IMG/VR virus record: IMGVR_UViG_3300045988_067725
Coordinates: 1-11,684 of that record
Reading direction: 5' to 3' (one strand)
Length of the DNA stretch: 11,684 nucleotides
From: a virus
The first letter of the stretch is position 1. Each line of letters opens with the position of its first letter. Positions 6,209-11,684 of this stretch are shown piece after piece. Under the pieces are notes generated by a model. It did no database searches. It saw nothing but the letters and a program-made list of their open reading frames with translations, and had not been told where the DNA came from. The position numbers were made by a program, and so were the translations under genes.

Positions 6209-7420
6209 ATGGCAAAAACCAAACAAATACTGTACAATGATTTGCAGCGACTTGTAAAAGACAAAGACACAGCCGTTGCAAACTTTGTTGCGACCTGTTA
6301 CAACAGGTTGCAAGCTATGTTTGTTTATACAGGGGTTGCCGACCTCCACGCCCTCAATATACAGGCGTTGGAATTTGCGTTGCAGTCAAAAGGGCATTGC
6401 ATCGTTGCCGAGGTAAACGGGGAGTTGTACGCACTGACAGGCGAACCAACGGGCGAACTGAACGCCTATTATGAGCCAACGCAGTACATTGTTGCAAACC
6501 CGTGGTTGAAGTTGAACAAAACCTATACTATTGGCAAAGATTGCGTTTTGTTTCGCAATGATTATTTAATGCAGGGGTTACAGCCTGTTATTGGACGGTA
6601 TGCGGTTGAATTGACCGACACCGAAATATCATTGAACACGGCAGCGGTTTTAAGCCGTATAACAATGCTGATAAGCGCAGCAGATGACAAGACCAAAGCG
6701 AGCGCAGACCTGTTTTTAACAAAGATATTAAACGGTGACTTTTCGGTTATCGGTGAAAATGCGTTTTTTGACGGTGTGAAGTTGCAGACGTTGTCGACCT
6801 CACACACCAACTATATAACGCAACTGATTGAATTAACGCAGTATTATAAGGCGTCTATGTGGCACGAAATGGGTTTACAGGCAAATTATAATATGAAGCG
6901 TGAACGACTTACACAGGGTGAAACAGAGGCGAATGTTGACAGCCTGTTACCGTTGGCGGACGCAATGTTAACAGAACGCAAACGGGCGGTTGAACGTATG
7001 AACGAAATGTTTAACACAACCGTTACCGTTGAGTTTGGCAGCAGTTGGCGCACACTACACGAAGAGGAAGAGCGCAACAACGAAATTGTCAACACCCAAA
7101 GCGACACCCACGAGTTGCCCGACAATGGCACGGACGGGGGCGGCAACGAACCGACAGACGGCAACCCCGACAACGGGGGTGACGGCACGGGGCGCAATGA
7201 TGGAACGTATAACGCAGGGGGTGACACTGACACCGACCGACAAGGCGCACCCACGGACGGGGGCGAATTGGAAACGGGCGAACAGGGGCAACCCAACGTG
7301 GACGAGCCAGAGCCTACCACGGAACGTGACACCGAGGGCAACCCGAAAGACAACGAACAGGGAGAGGACGCAGACAGCGACACCGAACCCGACAACAATA
7401 AAAAGGACAAACAGCAATGA
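6209..7420 (+). CDS. Portal / head-tail connector protein (phi29 gp10-like) with an acidic disordered C-terminal extension (403 aa)
   Basis: Position is directly after the packaging ATPase. The segment YYKASMWHEMGLQANYNMKRERLTQGETE resembles my recollection of phi29 gp10 ([29 protein letters not shown]). The last ~110 aa are low-complexity and rich in D, G, T, N, E and P. Confidence 0.8.
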   Translation: MAKTKQILYNDLQRLVKDKDTAVANFVATCYNRLQAMFVYTGVADLHALNIQALEFALQSKGHCIVAEVNGELYALTGEPTGELNAYYEPTQYIVANPWLKLNKTYTIGKDCVLFRNDYLMQGLQPVIGRYAVELTDTEISLNTAAVLSRITMLISAADDKTKASADLFLTKILNGDFSVIGENAFFDGVKLQTLSTSHTNYITQLIELTQYYKASMWHEMGLQANYNMKRERLTQGETEANVDSLLPLADAMLTERKRAVERMNEMFNTTVTVEFGSSWRTLHEEEERNNEIVNTQSDTHELPDNGTDGGGNEPTDGNPDNGGDGTGRNDGTYNAGGDTDTDRQGAPTDGGELETGEQGQPNVDEPEPTTERDTEGNPKDNEQGEDADSDTEPDNNKKDKQQ

Positions 7421-7980
7421 CACGTTACAGCGACATATTTACACCTACCAACGGGGTATTTGCTATAATGGCAACAGGCGTGTTTGAAGCGTTGTTTGGA
7501 AACACCCACACGCCCGAAGATTTGGACGCATACGCATACACGAAGTTTGCAGGGCGTACCCTGTTGCCGTGCATAACAGCAGAAAACGCAGCAGAGATTT
7601 TAACACCGTTGTTTTTGGCGAAGTTTGACAAATGGCAGACCGTTAAAAACGCACTTGCAACACCTGTTGAAGTTGGCAGCGTTAAGACCGTGGAAAAGAC
7701 CGAGGGAAACGAAGACCACACGGACACCGAGGACACCACGGACACCGACAGCGAAAAGGCGTACAACAGTGCTGATTTTGTTGAAAGCGGTAAAACAGCA
7801 CGCACGCAGGAACAGGCACGCAAAAGACAGTACGACCAAACGAAGACCACAACCCGACAGGTTGAAGACGTGCAACGGGCAATTAACGAAGCCGTGGACG
7901 CAGCCAACAAATACAACTTTGTTGACATCGTGCTAAAAGAAATTATTAACAACATAACATTATCCGTTTATGAAGATTGA
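7417..7980 (+). CDS. Probable scaffolding protein (187 aa)
   Basis: Lies between the portal and capsid genes. ATGA start/stop overlap with the portal (7417..7420) and an 11-nt overlap with the capsid gene suggest translational coupling. The middle is acidic (EKTEGNEDHTDTEDTTDTDSE) and the C-terminus looks helical. Function is assigned by position and composition only. Confidence 0.75.
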   Translation: MTRYSDIFTPTNGVFAIMATGVFEALFGNTHTPEDLDAYAYTKFAGRTLLPCITAENAAEILTPLFLAKFDKWQTVKNALATPVEVGSVKTVEKTEGNEDHTDTEDTTDTDSEKAYNSADFVESGKTARTQEQARKRQYDQTKTTTRQVEDVQRAINEAVDAANKYNFVDIVLKEIINNITLSVYED

Positions 7981-9157
7981 ACAGATTGCAACGCTGATGA
8001 ACAGCGTAACGGGTGAAGTGTTGGGAAAAACCAACATTGTAACCGAAGACCTCAGCAACGTTGTTGAGGTAGGTACAGAGATTTTCAACGCAAATGCGGT
8101 TGACGCTTACGTTAAAGCGTTGGTAAACCACATCGGCAAAGTAGTGTTTGTAAATCGTCCCTATGTTGGCAAAGTGCCGTCTGTACTTATGGACAGTTGG
8201 GAGTTTGGCAGCGTGTTGGAAAAGATTAGCGCAGACACGCCACAGGCAACCGAAAACGACACTTGGGATTTGCAGGACGGGCAGACCTATGCGCAGGACG
8301 TGTTTTACAAACCGACCGTTTCGGCAAAGTTTTTCAACAGCCGTGTAACATTTGAAGTGCCCGTATCAATTACCGAAAGACAGGTACGACAGAGTTTCAG
8401 CAGCGCAGAGCAACTCAACGGGTTTATATCTATGATATACGGGGCGGTTGAGAAGTCTATGACTATCAAGACGGACGCACTTATTATGCGTACTATCAAC
8501 GCAATGACCGCACAAACATTTGTTGCGGACGCAGCAGCGTTTGGCGCAGAAACACCCAACTACAACAGCACAAGCACAACCCGTTGTGTGAACCTGTTGA
8601 AGTTGTACAACGACAAGTTTAAGCCTACAAAGGCACTGACAGCATCGGACGCAATAACCAACCCCGAATTTGTACGCTTTGCATCGTACATTATGGGTAT
8701 GTATGCAGACCGTTTCGGCAGCATTTCAACCCTGTTTAACATCGGGGGCAAAGACCGTTTCACGCCGTCGGACGTGTTGCACTTTGTCGTATTGAGCGAC
8801 TTTGCACAGGCAGCCAAAACGTACCTGTACAGCGACACCAAACACAACGAGTTTGTGCAGTTGCCGAAACACGAAACAGTACCGTATTGGCAGGGCAGCG
8901 GTACAAATTACGCATTTGCCGACACCTCCAAAATTGACGTTAAAGTTGGCGGTAAATCCGAGGGCGTAAATGTATCTGTTGGCGGTGTGTTGGGCGTTAT
9001 GTTTGACCGTGACGCATTGGGCGTTGCTTGCTTGGATAAGCGAGTAACAAGCACCTACAACGCAAAAGCAGAGTTTTTCAACAATTACTATAAGTTTGAC
9101 GCAGGGTATTTCAATGATACCAACGAAAACTTTGTTGTTTTCTATGTTGGAGAGTAA
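7970..9157 (+). CDS. Major capsid protein, phi29 gp8-like (HK97 fold expected), 395 aa
   Basis: Several segments parallel remembered gp8 blocks: LSNVVEVGTEIF...ALVNHIGKVVFVNRPY (gp8: ANNVAEVGAGI...LVDRIGLVV), LNGFISMIYGAVEKS, and FFNNYYKF near the C-terminus. The gene is followed by a strong terminator. There is no C-terminal Ig-like domain. Confidence 0.85.
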   Translation: MKIEQIATLMNSVTGEVLGKTNIVTEDLSNVVEVGTEIFNANAVDAYVKALVNHIGKVVFVNRPYVGKVPSVLMDSWEFGSVLEKISADTPQATENDTWDLQDGQTYAQDVFYKPTVSAKFFNSRVTFEVPVSITERQVRQSFSSAEQLNGFISMIYGAVEKSMTIKTDALIMRTINAMTAQTFVADAAAFGAETPNYNSTSTTRCVNLLKLYNDKFKPTKALTASDAITNPEFVRFASYIMGMYADRFGSISTLFNIGGKDRFTPSDVLHFVVLSDFAQAAKTYLYSDTKHNEFVQLPKHETVPYWQGSGTNYAFADTSKIDVKVGGKSEGVNVSVGGVLGVMFDRDALGVACLDKRVTSTYNAKAEFFNNYYKFDAGYFNDTNENFVVFYVGE

Positions 9158-9230: not shown

Positions 9231-9665
9231 ATGGTAACACTCAAATTATACGAATATACAGGCGCACCCAACGTTATAAATAAGCAGTTGGGCGAACCGT
9301 CTGCAACGTTGCAGGGGGTTTTGTACGACCGTACAAACGTACTGCAACCCGTGGTTAAATTGGAGCGCATCACACCCACATTTAATTACGTCTATATTGA
9401 GCCGTTGAGCCGTTTTTATTTCGTTTCTAACGTTACAATAGTGGACGCAAATTTTATGTTGGTAACGTTGCAAGAAGACACGTTAAAGACATACGAAACG
9501 ACTATATTAAACGCAACAGCCACGGCAACCAAAACGGCAACCCCGAATTATGACAGCAACAACACACCCGTTTTTGACGTGCGAAAGCAGTTGCAGCAGT
9601 TGGAGTTTGGGGGCGGTTTTGACGAAACAGGCAGCGTTATTATGGTAACAATTAAAGGTGATTAA
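9231..9665 (+). CDS. Tail protein (144 aa); resembles the N-terminal domain of phi29 gp9-type tail-knob proteins
   Basis: NYVYIEPLSRFYFVSNVTIVDANFMLVTLQEDTLKTY resembles the remembered gp9 N-terminal block SYIMFQN...[30 protein letters not shown]. It is the first gene after the capsid terminator. Confidence 0.75.
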   Translation: MVTLKLYEYTGAPNVINKQLGEPSATLQGVLYDRTNVLQPVVKLERITPTFNYVYIEPLSRFYFVSNVTIVDANFMLVTLQEDTLKTYETTILNATATATKTATPNYDSNNTPVFDVRKQLQQLEFGGGFDETGSVIMVTIKGD

Positions 9666-9670
9666 AGACT

Positions 9671-11278
9671 ATGGCAAGGACATACACAATAACGTTGAAC
9701 GGCACAAATTGCACTGCAAAACAGTTGGTTTCACCTGTTGAAGCAGGTGCAAGCAGCACCGTTATAATACAGGCGTTTTCGGGGTATTGGTTCGTTGATC
9801 CGTGGCAGGTTTCATATTTTGACTATGATAACGGGTATTACACCCGTAAAACCTGTATTTTGAACGAAGACAAAACCGAAGCGACATTTGAATTTACAGG
9901 CATAGGCAGCAACATTGTTATTGACGCAACAGCGGTTGAAGCACCCAAACCGACCGACTACAAAATTATAACAGCGTTGACCGAGTGCCAAGTTACACCG
10001 TTAGACGGGTTTAACGCAGGTGATACCGTGCAATTAGAAGTTACTGCAAACCGTTGGTTTTACTTTGGCACTGATACCCCGTTTGTACGTTATACCAACA
10101 CCGAGGGAAACGAAGTAACGCACCCGTTTGAACTGACAACGAACCAATACGGCACGTTGAAAATAACGGACGCAAACAGCGACATAACAGTTACAGGCGT
10201 AGCCACAAAGACCCCAAACGCTATATTTATAGCAACAGACGGTTTACACAACGCAACGTGTGATTTACCGCAATTTTTGAATTTTGGCACAGAGTACACA
10301 GCAAACGTAAAAGTTGAAAAAGGGTATAAATTTGACCCTAACGCAATTTGCGGTATATCGTGGCAAACAAATTTCGGTGAATTTACTGCAAAGTATTTCA
10401 CCAAAGCAGAAGACGGCAAAAGTGCAACACTGACGTTTACCACACCAGAACAGGACAAAATTGAAGAATACATAATGAGCGTGTACGGCACGCCCGTACC
10501 TGTTGTTGAGTATGACGGTATATATGGAAGTATAAACGTTTACGTTGTAGATGATACGCAATTAAATGAATTTGCAAAACAACGTTATGTTGTAAGCACT
10601 GACCCACAAACAGGCGTTTCAGATTATGACGATATGGGCGAATTTGTTTTGCGCTTACATCGTGTTTACGTTGGCGTTGGTACTTTGACCGACACAGTAA
10701 TTAAAGCAGGTAGATACAACACAGGTATTGCCACAAAAGCACCTTTGCAAGACGTGGCACAGGTTGAGTTTGACAGCGTGAGAGTACCGACACCCAACAA
10801 CGACATAACAGACTACAACGCAGACGTAGAACTATATTTGCCGTTTGTTGGTACAATACAATTAGACGCAAATACAGTTGTGGGGCGTGACGTTTCAATT
10901 ACATACGTTGTAAACATCGTTACAGGTCAAGCAGCAGCGTTTGTTTACGTGGACGGTGCAACAATATACAACGGCAAATGTAAAGCGGTTTCACCTATGT
11001 TATATCGTACATATAGCGACAAATTTGGCGAACTGACAAACGACACAACCACGTTGCAGGGTTTAACGCCTTACATACTGATACGTTACAATGAGAGCAG
11101 ACAGGCACAACCGTACAACGCAAACAAGCGTGACCGCATCGGCAATTTTACGGGGCGCAACACGTTTGTTGATATTGACAACCTACAAACAGACGGTATG
11201 TATTTAGCAGAATACAGCGACATATTAAACCGACTGCAACAGGGCGTTGTAATTGAGCCAACAGGCACGAACCCGTAA
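9671..11278 (+). CDS. Tail / receptor-binding protein (535 aa): three tandem ~90-aa beta-sandwich-like repeats plus a gp9-like C-terminal domain
   Basis: Repeats at residues ~4-93, ~96-182 and ~184-277 each start Y/F-x-I with one early Cys. They end ...IVIDATAVEAPKP, ...ITVTGVATKTP and ...IMSVYGTPVP. The C-terminus RIGNFTGRNTFVDIDNLQTDGMYLAEYSDILNRLQQGVVIE resembles the remembered phi29 gp9 C-terminus ([39 protein letters not shown]). The last 102 codons lie inside ITR-R. Confidence 0.85.
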   Translation: MARTYTITLNGTNCTAKQLVSPVEAGASSTVIIQAFSGYWFVDPWQVSYFDYDNGYYTRKTCILNEDKTEATFEFTGIGSNIVIDATAVEAPKPTDYKIITALTECQVTPLDGFNAGDTVQLEVTANRWFYFGTDTPFVRYTNTEGNEVTHPFELTTNQYGTLKITDANSDITVTGVATKTPNAIFIATDGLHNATCDLPQFLNFGTEYTANVKVEKGYKFDPNAICGISWQTNFGEFTAKYFTKAEDGKSATLTFTTPEQDKIEEYIMSVYGTPVPVVEYDGIYGSINVYVVDDTQLNEFAKQRYVVSTDPQTGVSDYDDMGEFVLRLHRVYVGVGTLTDTVIKAGRYNTGIATKAPLQDVAQVEFDSVRVPTPNNDITDYNADVELYLPFVGTIQLDANTVVGRDVSITYVVNIVTGQAAAFVYVDGATIYNGKCKAVSPMLYRTYSDKFGELTNDTTTLQGLTPYILIRYNESRQAQPYNANKRDRIGNFTGRNTFVDIDNLQTDGMYLAEYSDILNRLQQGVVIEPTGTNP

Positions 11279-11305
11279 CAATGTACACCAACAGCAAAAC
11301 AACGC

Positions 11306-11356
11306 AACAGGGCGCACGTATTGAAGCCACACAGCACACATACGGCACGCCCTGTT
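11306..11356 (+). terminator. Candidate terminator hairpin downstream of the tail gene (mirrored at 329..379)
   Basis: aacagggcg (11306..11314) pairs with cgccctgtt (11348..11356). An inner cgtat/atacg extension is possible. The stem shares CAGGGCGCAC with the capsid terminator. No U-tract follows, so confidence is moderate. Confidence 0.4.
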
Positions 11357-11597
11357 ACCTGTTGGCAACGTATGAAACCTGTACAAATTAACAACACGGG
11401 CAAACGTTGAGCCAACAGGCACGGCAAAGCATCACACACGCAACCGTTGGCACGTTACGGCACGACACGGCACGGCACGAAACATATTTGTTACAATTTA
11501 CAAATGTAAACTGAACGGTTTACAAAACTAAACAACCTGTTTACATTTGTGAATTTTTTTGCAACACGTTAATAATTGTTAAATAATGTTAATACTA

Positions 11598-11642
11598 ATG
11601 TTTCACGTGAAACATCGTGGGCGGTGTGTTCCACGTGGAACA
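11598..11642. promoter_or_regulatory. Mirror copy of the two terminal palindromes in ITR-R
   Basis: atgtttcacgtgaaacat at 11598..11615 and tgttccacgtggaaca at 11627..11642. Confidence 0.6.
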
Positions 11643-11684
11643 ATCACGGCACGGGGAAAGGGGCGACAGGTGAGCGAGGTGCAT

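Follow-up and report, generated by a model that had tools for sequence, protein, structure and literature searches.

A 714-nt inverted terminal repeat that enters a tail gene in a small human-gut phi29-like phage: probable recent copying of one genome end onto the other

The inverted terminal repeats (ITRs) of phi29-like phages measure 6 bp in phi29, 6-16 bp in the phages of Bacillus (PMC6266182) and 25-30 bp in those of Clostridium (PMC3362512). The smallest phi29-like phages are the Astrithrvirus-like phages, together with a 12.1-kb faecal metagenome-assembled genome (MAG) assigned to Bacteroidales, and in the Astrithrvirus-like phages the tail knob is divided between a small N-part and a large C-part that bears added immunoglobulin (Ig)-like domains (PMC11476376). 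The ITR is 219 nt long in Pectobacterium phage DU_PP_III and about 144-149 nt in Enterobacter phage Entb_47, and these repeats are perfect or near-perfect. Here we analyse the ITR of IMG/VR record IMGVR_UViG_3300045988_067725, of which the whole 11,684-nt stretch is called the window; it is the genome of a small human-gut phi29-like/Astrithrvirus-like phage whose nearest cultured kin are the Astrithrvirus-like phages. The window resembles DU_PP_III, Entb_47 and the gut MAG "Bacteriophage sp. 2692_55609" in size (about 11-12 kb), gene order, protein-primed polymerase and what is probably a split Ig-like tail knob (PMC11476376). It differs from the Astrithrvirus-like phages in that their ITRs are noncoding, whereas the ITR of the window has 3-5 times their length and takes in 308 nt of the tail gene, and in that protein identity is only about 25-28% over the C-terminal half.

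A preliminary description of this DNA had reported a perfect 714-bp ITR, much longer than those of classical phi29-like phages. Both statements hold, with positions 1-714 being the exact reverse complement of positions 10971-11684 (714 nt, 100% complementary in a repeat search), and chance alone yields no repeat anywhere near this length. We consider it likely that the perfect repeat reflects a recent, strain-specific copying of the right genome end onto the left end. The extended ITR represents a well-known feature in an unusual form, not a new kind of system.

Architecture of the repeat and its junctions

The right arm (10971..11684) is the original copy, and the tail gene reads through position 10971 uninterrupted. 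Its coding share (10971-11278) consists of codons 435-535 of the 535-amino-acid (aa) tail gene, with 2 bases of codon 434 ahead of them and the stop codon behind, and 406 nt of downstream sequence follow (11279-11684); the 102 final codons plus 406 nt given earlier are thus correct if the stop is counted. The left arm (1..714) is the derived copy and carries, at 407..714 on the minus strand, the 3' end of the tail gene copied in inverted orientation (codons 434-535 and stop). Within it lies an open reading frame (ORF) of 93 aa (407-688, minus strand), the ATG of which corresponds to Met443 and the product of which is annotated as a gene on 9-10 public contigs; no Bacteroidota-type promoter was found 5' of this ORF. 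The noncoding part of the arm (1..406, mirrored at 11279-11684) comprises the old ITR (outer ~321-350 nt) and ~60-90 nt that formerly lay between the tail stop codon and the old boundary. As in a protein-primed replicon, the inverted repeat is found at both physical ends and the genome encodes a protein-primed family-B polymerase. A run of short CGTGCC(GT) repeats at 205-235 (mirrored at 11450-11480) lies within the ITR and is kept in the relatives L036 and L007.

The closest strains lack the extension. L036, which has 97.1% nucleotide identity to the window and an almost complete left end, shows an ITR of 321 nt with its boundary 87 nt past the tail stop codon. In L003, a Logan unitig of 97.4% nucleotide identity, the ITR is ~350 nt long and noncoding, with a boundary ~59 nt past the stop, and in the unitig L004 (tail protein 50% identical in aa) the boundary lies ~27 nt past it. 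The two ends of each of these two unitigs have exactly 30 nt in common, in inverted orientation. Logan unitigs use k = 31, and an overlap of k-1 is to be expected where both ends of the unique region enter one collapsed ITR node, which places the boundary downstream of the stop codon. Many further tail-protein variants are full-length on ~10.7-kb Logan unitigs, indicating that the ITR stays outside the tail gene there as well. Because the tail gene is continuous through 10971 in the window and also in L003 and L036, which are without the extension, the right arm is the source copy and the transfer ran from right to left. These strain comparisons mark the extension as a recent, strain-specific acquisition.

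At the inner edge of the left arm we observe a remnant, here called the relic, of an older left ITR's inner end (707..783), recognised by a direct repeat and by homology to the inner left arm of L036. The direct repeat pairs 257-321, the arm's own copy of the relic sequence (mirrored at 11364-11428), with 707-771 (65 nt, 94% identity, first 40 nt exact, spacing 450 nt), and it straddles the ITR boundary. The 8 nt with which it begins, TTTGCCGT, double as the end of the arm (707..714), being the reverse complement of 10971-10978 and identical to 257-264, so that they form a microhomology at the junction. Window positions 713-1395 align to L036 positions 265-939, which takes in the inner part of the L036 left ITR, a 49-nt piece of the relic recurs unchanged in the right arm of L037, and 3 of the 4 bases that separate the relic from the window's own arms are the ITR allele of L007. 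This alignment and these alleles indicate that the relic is the inner end of an older left ITR, the DNA to the left of which was overwritten.

The relic region (715-783) varies among otherwise identical contigs: L014 has a deletion of ~36 nt between short direct repeats, two relic bases are converted to the arm allele in L023, and L015, at 1x coverage, possibly has another junction, 4-5 nt further into the tail-gene copy before the relic. Between L036 (300-325) and L003 (1-35) the boundary is shifted by 29 nt, and both joins lie at a TGTG microhomology adjoining CTTATAAT. The left arm of L036 (5-311) is only 91.6% identical to that of the window, compared with 97% overall, and the terminal noncoding sequence of L007 (3368-3742) aligns closely by eye to window positions 11279-11684, with few indels and a variable stretch, despite 70% identity of the tail protein. 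ITR similarity therefore does not track genome similarity, which suggests an exchange of ends by recombination.

The repeat is genuine and no assembly artefact. Exact-protein look-ups recovered many public contigs that match the window at 100% identity; those in support of the repeat were drawn from about ten ENA assemblies, among which three naming styles occur (NODE_, k127_ and scaffold_). The left junction (714/715) is crossed by at least eight contigs (L012, L013, L014, L015, L023, L024, L025 and L027), with spans such as window positions 325-2669 (L012), 196-1542 (L013) and 187-879 (L023), and also by L001, L010 and L016, in these by just 16-20 nt. The right junction (10970/10971) is crossed by L001, L010 and L002, and the 93-aa ORF adjoins the first gene on contigs of up to 2.5 kb. 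The exact junction 32-mer was absent from IMG/VR, and JGI metagenome contigs gave L012 alone. Since the sequence shared at the junction is only 8 nt long, a k-mer or de Bruijn graph mis-join at this point is excluded. The 40-nt exact repeat (257-296 / 707-746) was likewise considered as the site of a de Bruijn mis-join and rejected, as an error there would yield 1-296 joined to 747 and not the 714/715 junction.

With respect to the wider family, 80 relatives were obtained from IMG/VR by a family-profile search (the single tail-protein query gave none). Comparing ITR lengths among related genomes, a check proposed at the outset, gives 321 nt in L036, ~350 nt in L003 and, in 56 whole IMG/VR relatives, exact terminal inverted repeats whose lengths run from 55 to 490 nt around a median of 181.5, some of these lengths (55, 99, 119 and 141) looking as if set by assembly k-mers. 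ITRs of hundreds of bp are thus normal in the gut clade, and 714 nt is about twice the ancestral length and no hundred-fold outlier. In none of the 56 does the ITR reach across an ORF of at least 150 aa. In many relatives, as well as in the sister-clade contig L029, similarity continues inward of the exact ITR at just 78-96%. This pattern of a perfect outer ITR and a decaying inner part indicates that a perfect repeat of 714 nt reflects recency.

A second case is found in L119 (IMGVR_UViG_3300045988_014704, 11,897 nt), which has a perfect 868-nt ITR (1-868 / 11030-11897) covering the last 108 codons and the stop of a 561-aa tail gene. Its relatives of ~93% identity have ITRs of 262-268 nt and unique DNA that aligns from L119 position 869 on, and a relic of the old ~264-nt ITR lies just inside the left arm (851-897 versus 360-406). 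No clear microhomology was found at the L119 join. By these comparisons L119, a distant relative of the window, gained its extension independently, and the net gains are alike (450 nt in the window, 491 nt in L119). The L119 ITR also holds five tandem repeats of ~48 nt, of which L075, one relative with its left end read, has about three by count.

Right-to-left copying and its alternatives

In the mechanism that we propose, the outer ~320-350 nt of each arm would be the ancestral noncoding ITR, bearing the replication origin at its tip along with two parS-like sites, and the inner ~365-395 nt would be a recent lineage-specific extension. A strand begun at the right terminus would have been copied leftward through the 3' end of the tail gene to 10971, and copying would then have resumed on the left-end template at old position 265, inside the old left ITR, through pairing at TTTGCCGT. 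In this way 714 nt from the right end would have taken the place of the old terminal ~264 nt of the left end and added a net 450 nt, leaving the old inner ITR stranded as the relic at 707-783. A single event of this kind accounts for all of these features. The polymerase may have switched templates during strand-displacement replication, or a truncated left end may have been repaired by priming on the right end through the same microhomology, both routes giving the same product. The structure, its right-to-left direction, the relic, the microhomology and the lack of the extension in sister strains are shown by the sequences, and we infer the timing of the event and also the copying enzyme, which would be the window's own protein-primed polymerase (2657..4864). 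The left copy of the tail fragment would most likely be a passenger.

This is in line with what is described for phi29, the polymerase of which switches templates in vivo and generates subgenomic molecules, with the right end as their main source (Murthy et al. 1998, cited through PMC4974454); according to PMC4974454, the switching possibly occurs upon meeting transcription. All genes of the window read rightward, so replication forks from the right end would meet transcription of the tail gene head-on, and such encounters would account for the choice of donor end as well as for the take-off region.

Several observations weigh against this reading. The contigs that we group as lineage A are all ~100% identical in their arms, so that recency is inseparable from ongoing homogenisation. 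The repeat structure is seen in assembled contigs and is presumed for the packaged form, and many of the junction contigs derive from one faecal-transplant project (PRJEB12357 / "LISI16-1"), being separate libraries of perhaps one phage population. Furthermore, only the window shows the outermost ~150 nt of the left arm connected to the junction; the other contigs end 138-196 nt from the tip. The second case, L119, is one contig, and its capture begins only 9 residues away from that of the window (N434 in the window, the equivalent of V425 in L119), which pure accident does not predict.

A broader version of the copying model, which we hold to be unlikely, is that end-to-end copying is a frequent, active rescue of host-damaged termini with variable junctions, and that the repeated capture of the same conserved ~100 codons of the tail-knob C-terminus, in two distant lineages, is non-random. 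If true, non-random capture could mean a hotspot of replication-transcription collision or selection for a second, separately expressed copy.

The preliminary description had left the choice between active homogenisation and a very recent duplication. Our results favour the second, as a recent strand-switch duplication, and not the active maintenance of an old repeat. An old ITR kept perfect by panhandle or strand-switch re-copying, with the tail C-terminus evolving in concert and under constraint, seems rather improbable to us, even though several observations are compatible with it. The boundary varies among strains of at least 97% identity (321, ~350 and 714 nt), the joins of L036 and L003 both lie at TGTG, and L015 may have its own junction deeper in the tail gene; varying boundaries and joins jointly suggest recurrent end-to-end copying, and the outer parts of the ITR are perfect in most relatives. 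Nevertheless, the extension is not old, being absent from the closest strains, and in many relatives the 78-96% identity of the inner parts indicates that homogenisation fails to extend hundreds of nt inward. As the relic shows, the earlier inner ITR was already imperfect (94% identity plus indels), and the ~100% identical lineage-A arms offer no co-varying substitutions that would indicate concerted evolution. The related claim that the repeat constrains the tail C-terminus is not supported: L003 and L036 exist without the extension, the left copy is truncated, and the imperfect inner ITRs of many relatives indicate that breakage of the inner ITR is tolerated.

We regard it as very unlikely that the left copy was captured and kept for a function, such as expression of the 93-aa ORF as a free C-terminal tail-knob domain or provision of a cis-acting element at both ends. 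It is true that two independent lineages took nearly the same segment, that this segment is the most conserved part of the protein, and that an ORF with a start codon persists in the left arms of both the window and L119. The starts differ, however, since the window has an internal ATG and L119 a GTG that arose at the junction, and no Bacteroidota-type promoter faces the 93-aa ORF. Close strains also thrive without the left copy, and lineage-B tail variants are numerous. The near-identical boundaries could be coincidence, for which we roughly estimate a chance of about 1 in 10 on the premise that take-off is confined to the last ~200 codons, or they could reflect a packaging limit or a hotspot.

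Finally, although ITR-bearing metagenomic contigs are a known source of artefacts (discussed in PMC9610469), the evidence consists of assembled contigs and not reads, and several supporting contigs carry just 1-2x coverage in their names, the fold-back or multiple displacement amplification chimera raised earlier, or an assembler mis-join that placed an inverted right-end copy on the left end, is extremely improbable and is largely refuted by the junction contigs from multiple libraries, the 8-nt overlap that is too short for a k-mer graph join, the 93-aa ORF and first gene lying side by side, and a stranded relic that has alleles of other strains, consistent with a biological event.

Tail gene, genome tips and other features

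The 535-aa ORF (9671..11278, plus strand) is the last gene and follows the major capsid protein (MCP) gene and a 144-aa ORF (9231-9665, plus strand). Residues 217-529 of its product match the large post-MCP protein of Astrithrvirus-like phages at 24-28% identity (tblastn, E = 8e-9 to 1e-6), and the tblastn matches are solely to Astrithrvirus-like phages of Gram-negative hosts (DU_PP_III, Entb_47 and one Salmonella phage). In an AlphaFold2 model residues 1-270 form three confident beta domains and residues 280-535 are of low confidence; a Foldseek search with this model, in which the C-terminal half is poorly modelled, gave generic Ig-like matches only. Searches of the PDB by sequence, with the protein and with the family profile, were empty, and hhalign with the family profile gave no signal of likeness to phi29 gp9 (probability 0.07%). 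We observe the hallmarks of a split tail knob in the window, that is, homology to the post-MCP protein, an ORF of ~145 aa ahead of it and N-terminal Ig-like domains. From these similarities the 535-aa protein is probably the large subunit (C-part) of a split tail knob, in which three N-terminal Ig-like domains precede a conserved C-terminal half, and the C-terminal segment that lies in the repeat is its most conserved part. The label "tail knob" derives from the homology to the Astrithrvirus-like proteins and from the literature, not from a direct link to phi29 gp9.

The window is a whole protein-primed phi29-like phage genome that is short by only a few bases. Its tip reads ATGCACC without reiteration of the terminal base. 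L036, which begins GGGTATGCACC, carries GGGT ahead of the window's first base (GGGT+ATGCACC...), and L007 (a relative with 70% aa identity) stops 1 nt inside the window's end. The window thus probably lacks at least 4 terminal bases at each end, so that the true repeat would be a few bases longer, and the absent bases possibly include a G-run for sliding-back. Ragged contig starts are also seen among the relatives of L119 (first 10 nt of L058, L069, L075 and L059: TAAGGTACGC / AAGGTACGC / GTACGC / TACGC), and assembled termini are probably a few bases short in general.

Two 16-bp palindromes, TGTTCCACGTGGAACA (43-58) and TGTTTCACGTGAAACA (71-86), lie in the left arm and are mirrored in the right arm at 11599-11614 and 11627-11642. 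We take the chromosomal-type parS consensus to be the 16-bp palindrome TGTTNCACGTGAAACA; the palindrome at 71-86 matches it exactly and that at 43-58 with one mismatch, giving four matches in the window against 0.02 expected. Nearly all relatives (L039-L119) have one to three parS-like sites in each ITR arm, and many have an extra parS palindrome near 5.0-5.1 kb, in the intergenic region between ATPase and connector. Ahead of the connector gene of the window (6100-6210) there are parS half-sites, CGTGGAACA twice and GTTTCACG once, where many relatives have the full palindrome. The phi29 genome has exact TGTTTCACGTGGAACA copies, and its parS sites recruit host Spo0J (PMC2731898). The palindrome is the same as that used by phi29 with Spo0J/ParB, and the pattern suggests that these gut phages may hijack host ParB through putative parS sites in the ITRs. 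The sites of phi29 are internal and serve spore entrapment, whereas the predicted sites described here lie in both ITRs of phages with probably non-sporulating Bacteroidales hosts.

In the remainder of the genome, which is linear and phi29-like with the gene order of Astrithrvirus-like phages, all substantial ORFs lie on the plus strand. A Bacteroidota-type promoter motif (TTTG...TAnnTTTG, 837..870) is found ~48 nt 5' of the ATG of the first gene at 918. The protein-primed family-B DNA polymerase gene (2657..4864; PF03175 DNA_pol_B_2, E = 1.5e-17; phrog_1907, E = 5.9e-75) is followed by genes, identified with Pfam and PHROGs, for a gp16-type packaging ATPase (4876-6108, PF05894), the connector (6209-7420, PF05352) and a phi29-type MCP (7970-9157, PF25622 Phi29_MCP), the last three being in the same order as in Entb_47 and DU_PP_III. 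The 205-aa ORF immediately 5' of the polymerase gene (2017..2634) had no significant family match in Pfam or PHROGs and is a candidate terminal protein by position and phi29-like gene order. The polymerase gene shows a 12-nt indel (window 3268-3303 versus 2570-2617 in L001, a scaffold from the same study that is otherwise 100% identical), giving 735 versus 739 aa. At 6750-7750, covering the 3' end of the connector gene and the next ORF, G+C reaches 0.56 and the A-over-T skew is very strong (0.48); the counterpart in L119 (7080-7320) contains short tandem repeats rich in GAAAC/GACCC that would encode an acidic low-complexity peptide.

No lysin domain was matched in the ten ORFs scanned. The right ends of the sister clade (L009, L029 and L030) carry a minus-strand module with a Peptidase_M15_3 lysin, and the clade of the window stops at the tail gene; phage Phanie reportedly needs a helper for host lysis. 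The phage-carrying contigs from the public look-ups derive from human gut metagenomes, and the host is probably a member of Bacteroidales. Nothing in INPHARED matched the whole window by megablast, and the tail protein family, sought in 185,579 reference bacterial genomes as a sign of host or carrier state, was not found there.

Comparison with other protein-primed and linear replicons

The window offers a natural, sequence-resolved snapshot of the growth of a protein-primed ITR, in which one end would have been copied across a short microhomology and the old boundary left as a relic. Until now, the main grounds for proposing that ITRs grow by end copying were adenovirus genetics and studies of phi29, both in vitro and on defective molecules. 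Strains of 97% identity differ in ITR length and boundary, which bears on the use of ITRs as a completeness flag in viromics, on strain tracking in faecal-transplant data and on the judging of long, gene-containing metagenomic ITRs as artefacts. The evolution in vitro of genomes that carry a terminal protein is said to have been described by Esteban et al. in 1997. Adenovirus ITRs are repaired by panhandle formation or strand switching, with one end templating the regeneration of the other, and fungal linear plasmids such as kalilo have terminal inverted repeats of ~1.3 kb that overlap the ends of ORFs. The likeness to the window is one of mechanism only, in that one end templates the other and long terminal repeats may hold coding sequence; hosts are eukaryotic in both cases, and the polymerase and terminal-protein lineages are others.

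The haloviruses SH1, PH1 and HHIV-2 (ITRs of 309-337 nt) are also protein-primed and also differ among close relatives in the inner boundary of the repeat, and their authors were undecided between recombination and a replication mistake (PMC3622292). The shift there is 18-28 nt within noncoding DNA, with no gene captured and no relic described (PMC3622292). In the linear mitochondrial DNAs (mtDNAs) of hydrozoans a terminal gene, a complete or partial cox1, is inverted at the other end as part of the ITR, and these replicons are tied to a polB/terminal-protein ancestry (PMC3267393). They differ from the window in being organellar, in the ancient, clade-wide nature of the trait and in the loss of polB from Hydroidolinan mtDNAs (PMC3267393). 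The template switching of phi29, as presented in PMC4974454, likewise involves a protein-primed start, mostly at the right end, and inverted duplications of that end. The products of phi29 switching are defective subgenomic molecules, whereas the window is a full-length and apparently viable genome from natural samples.

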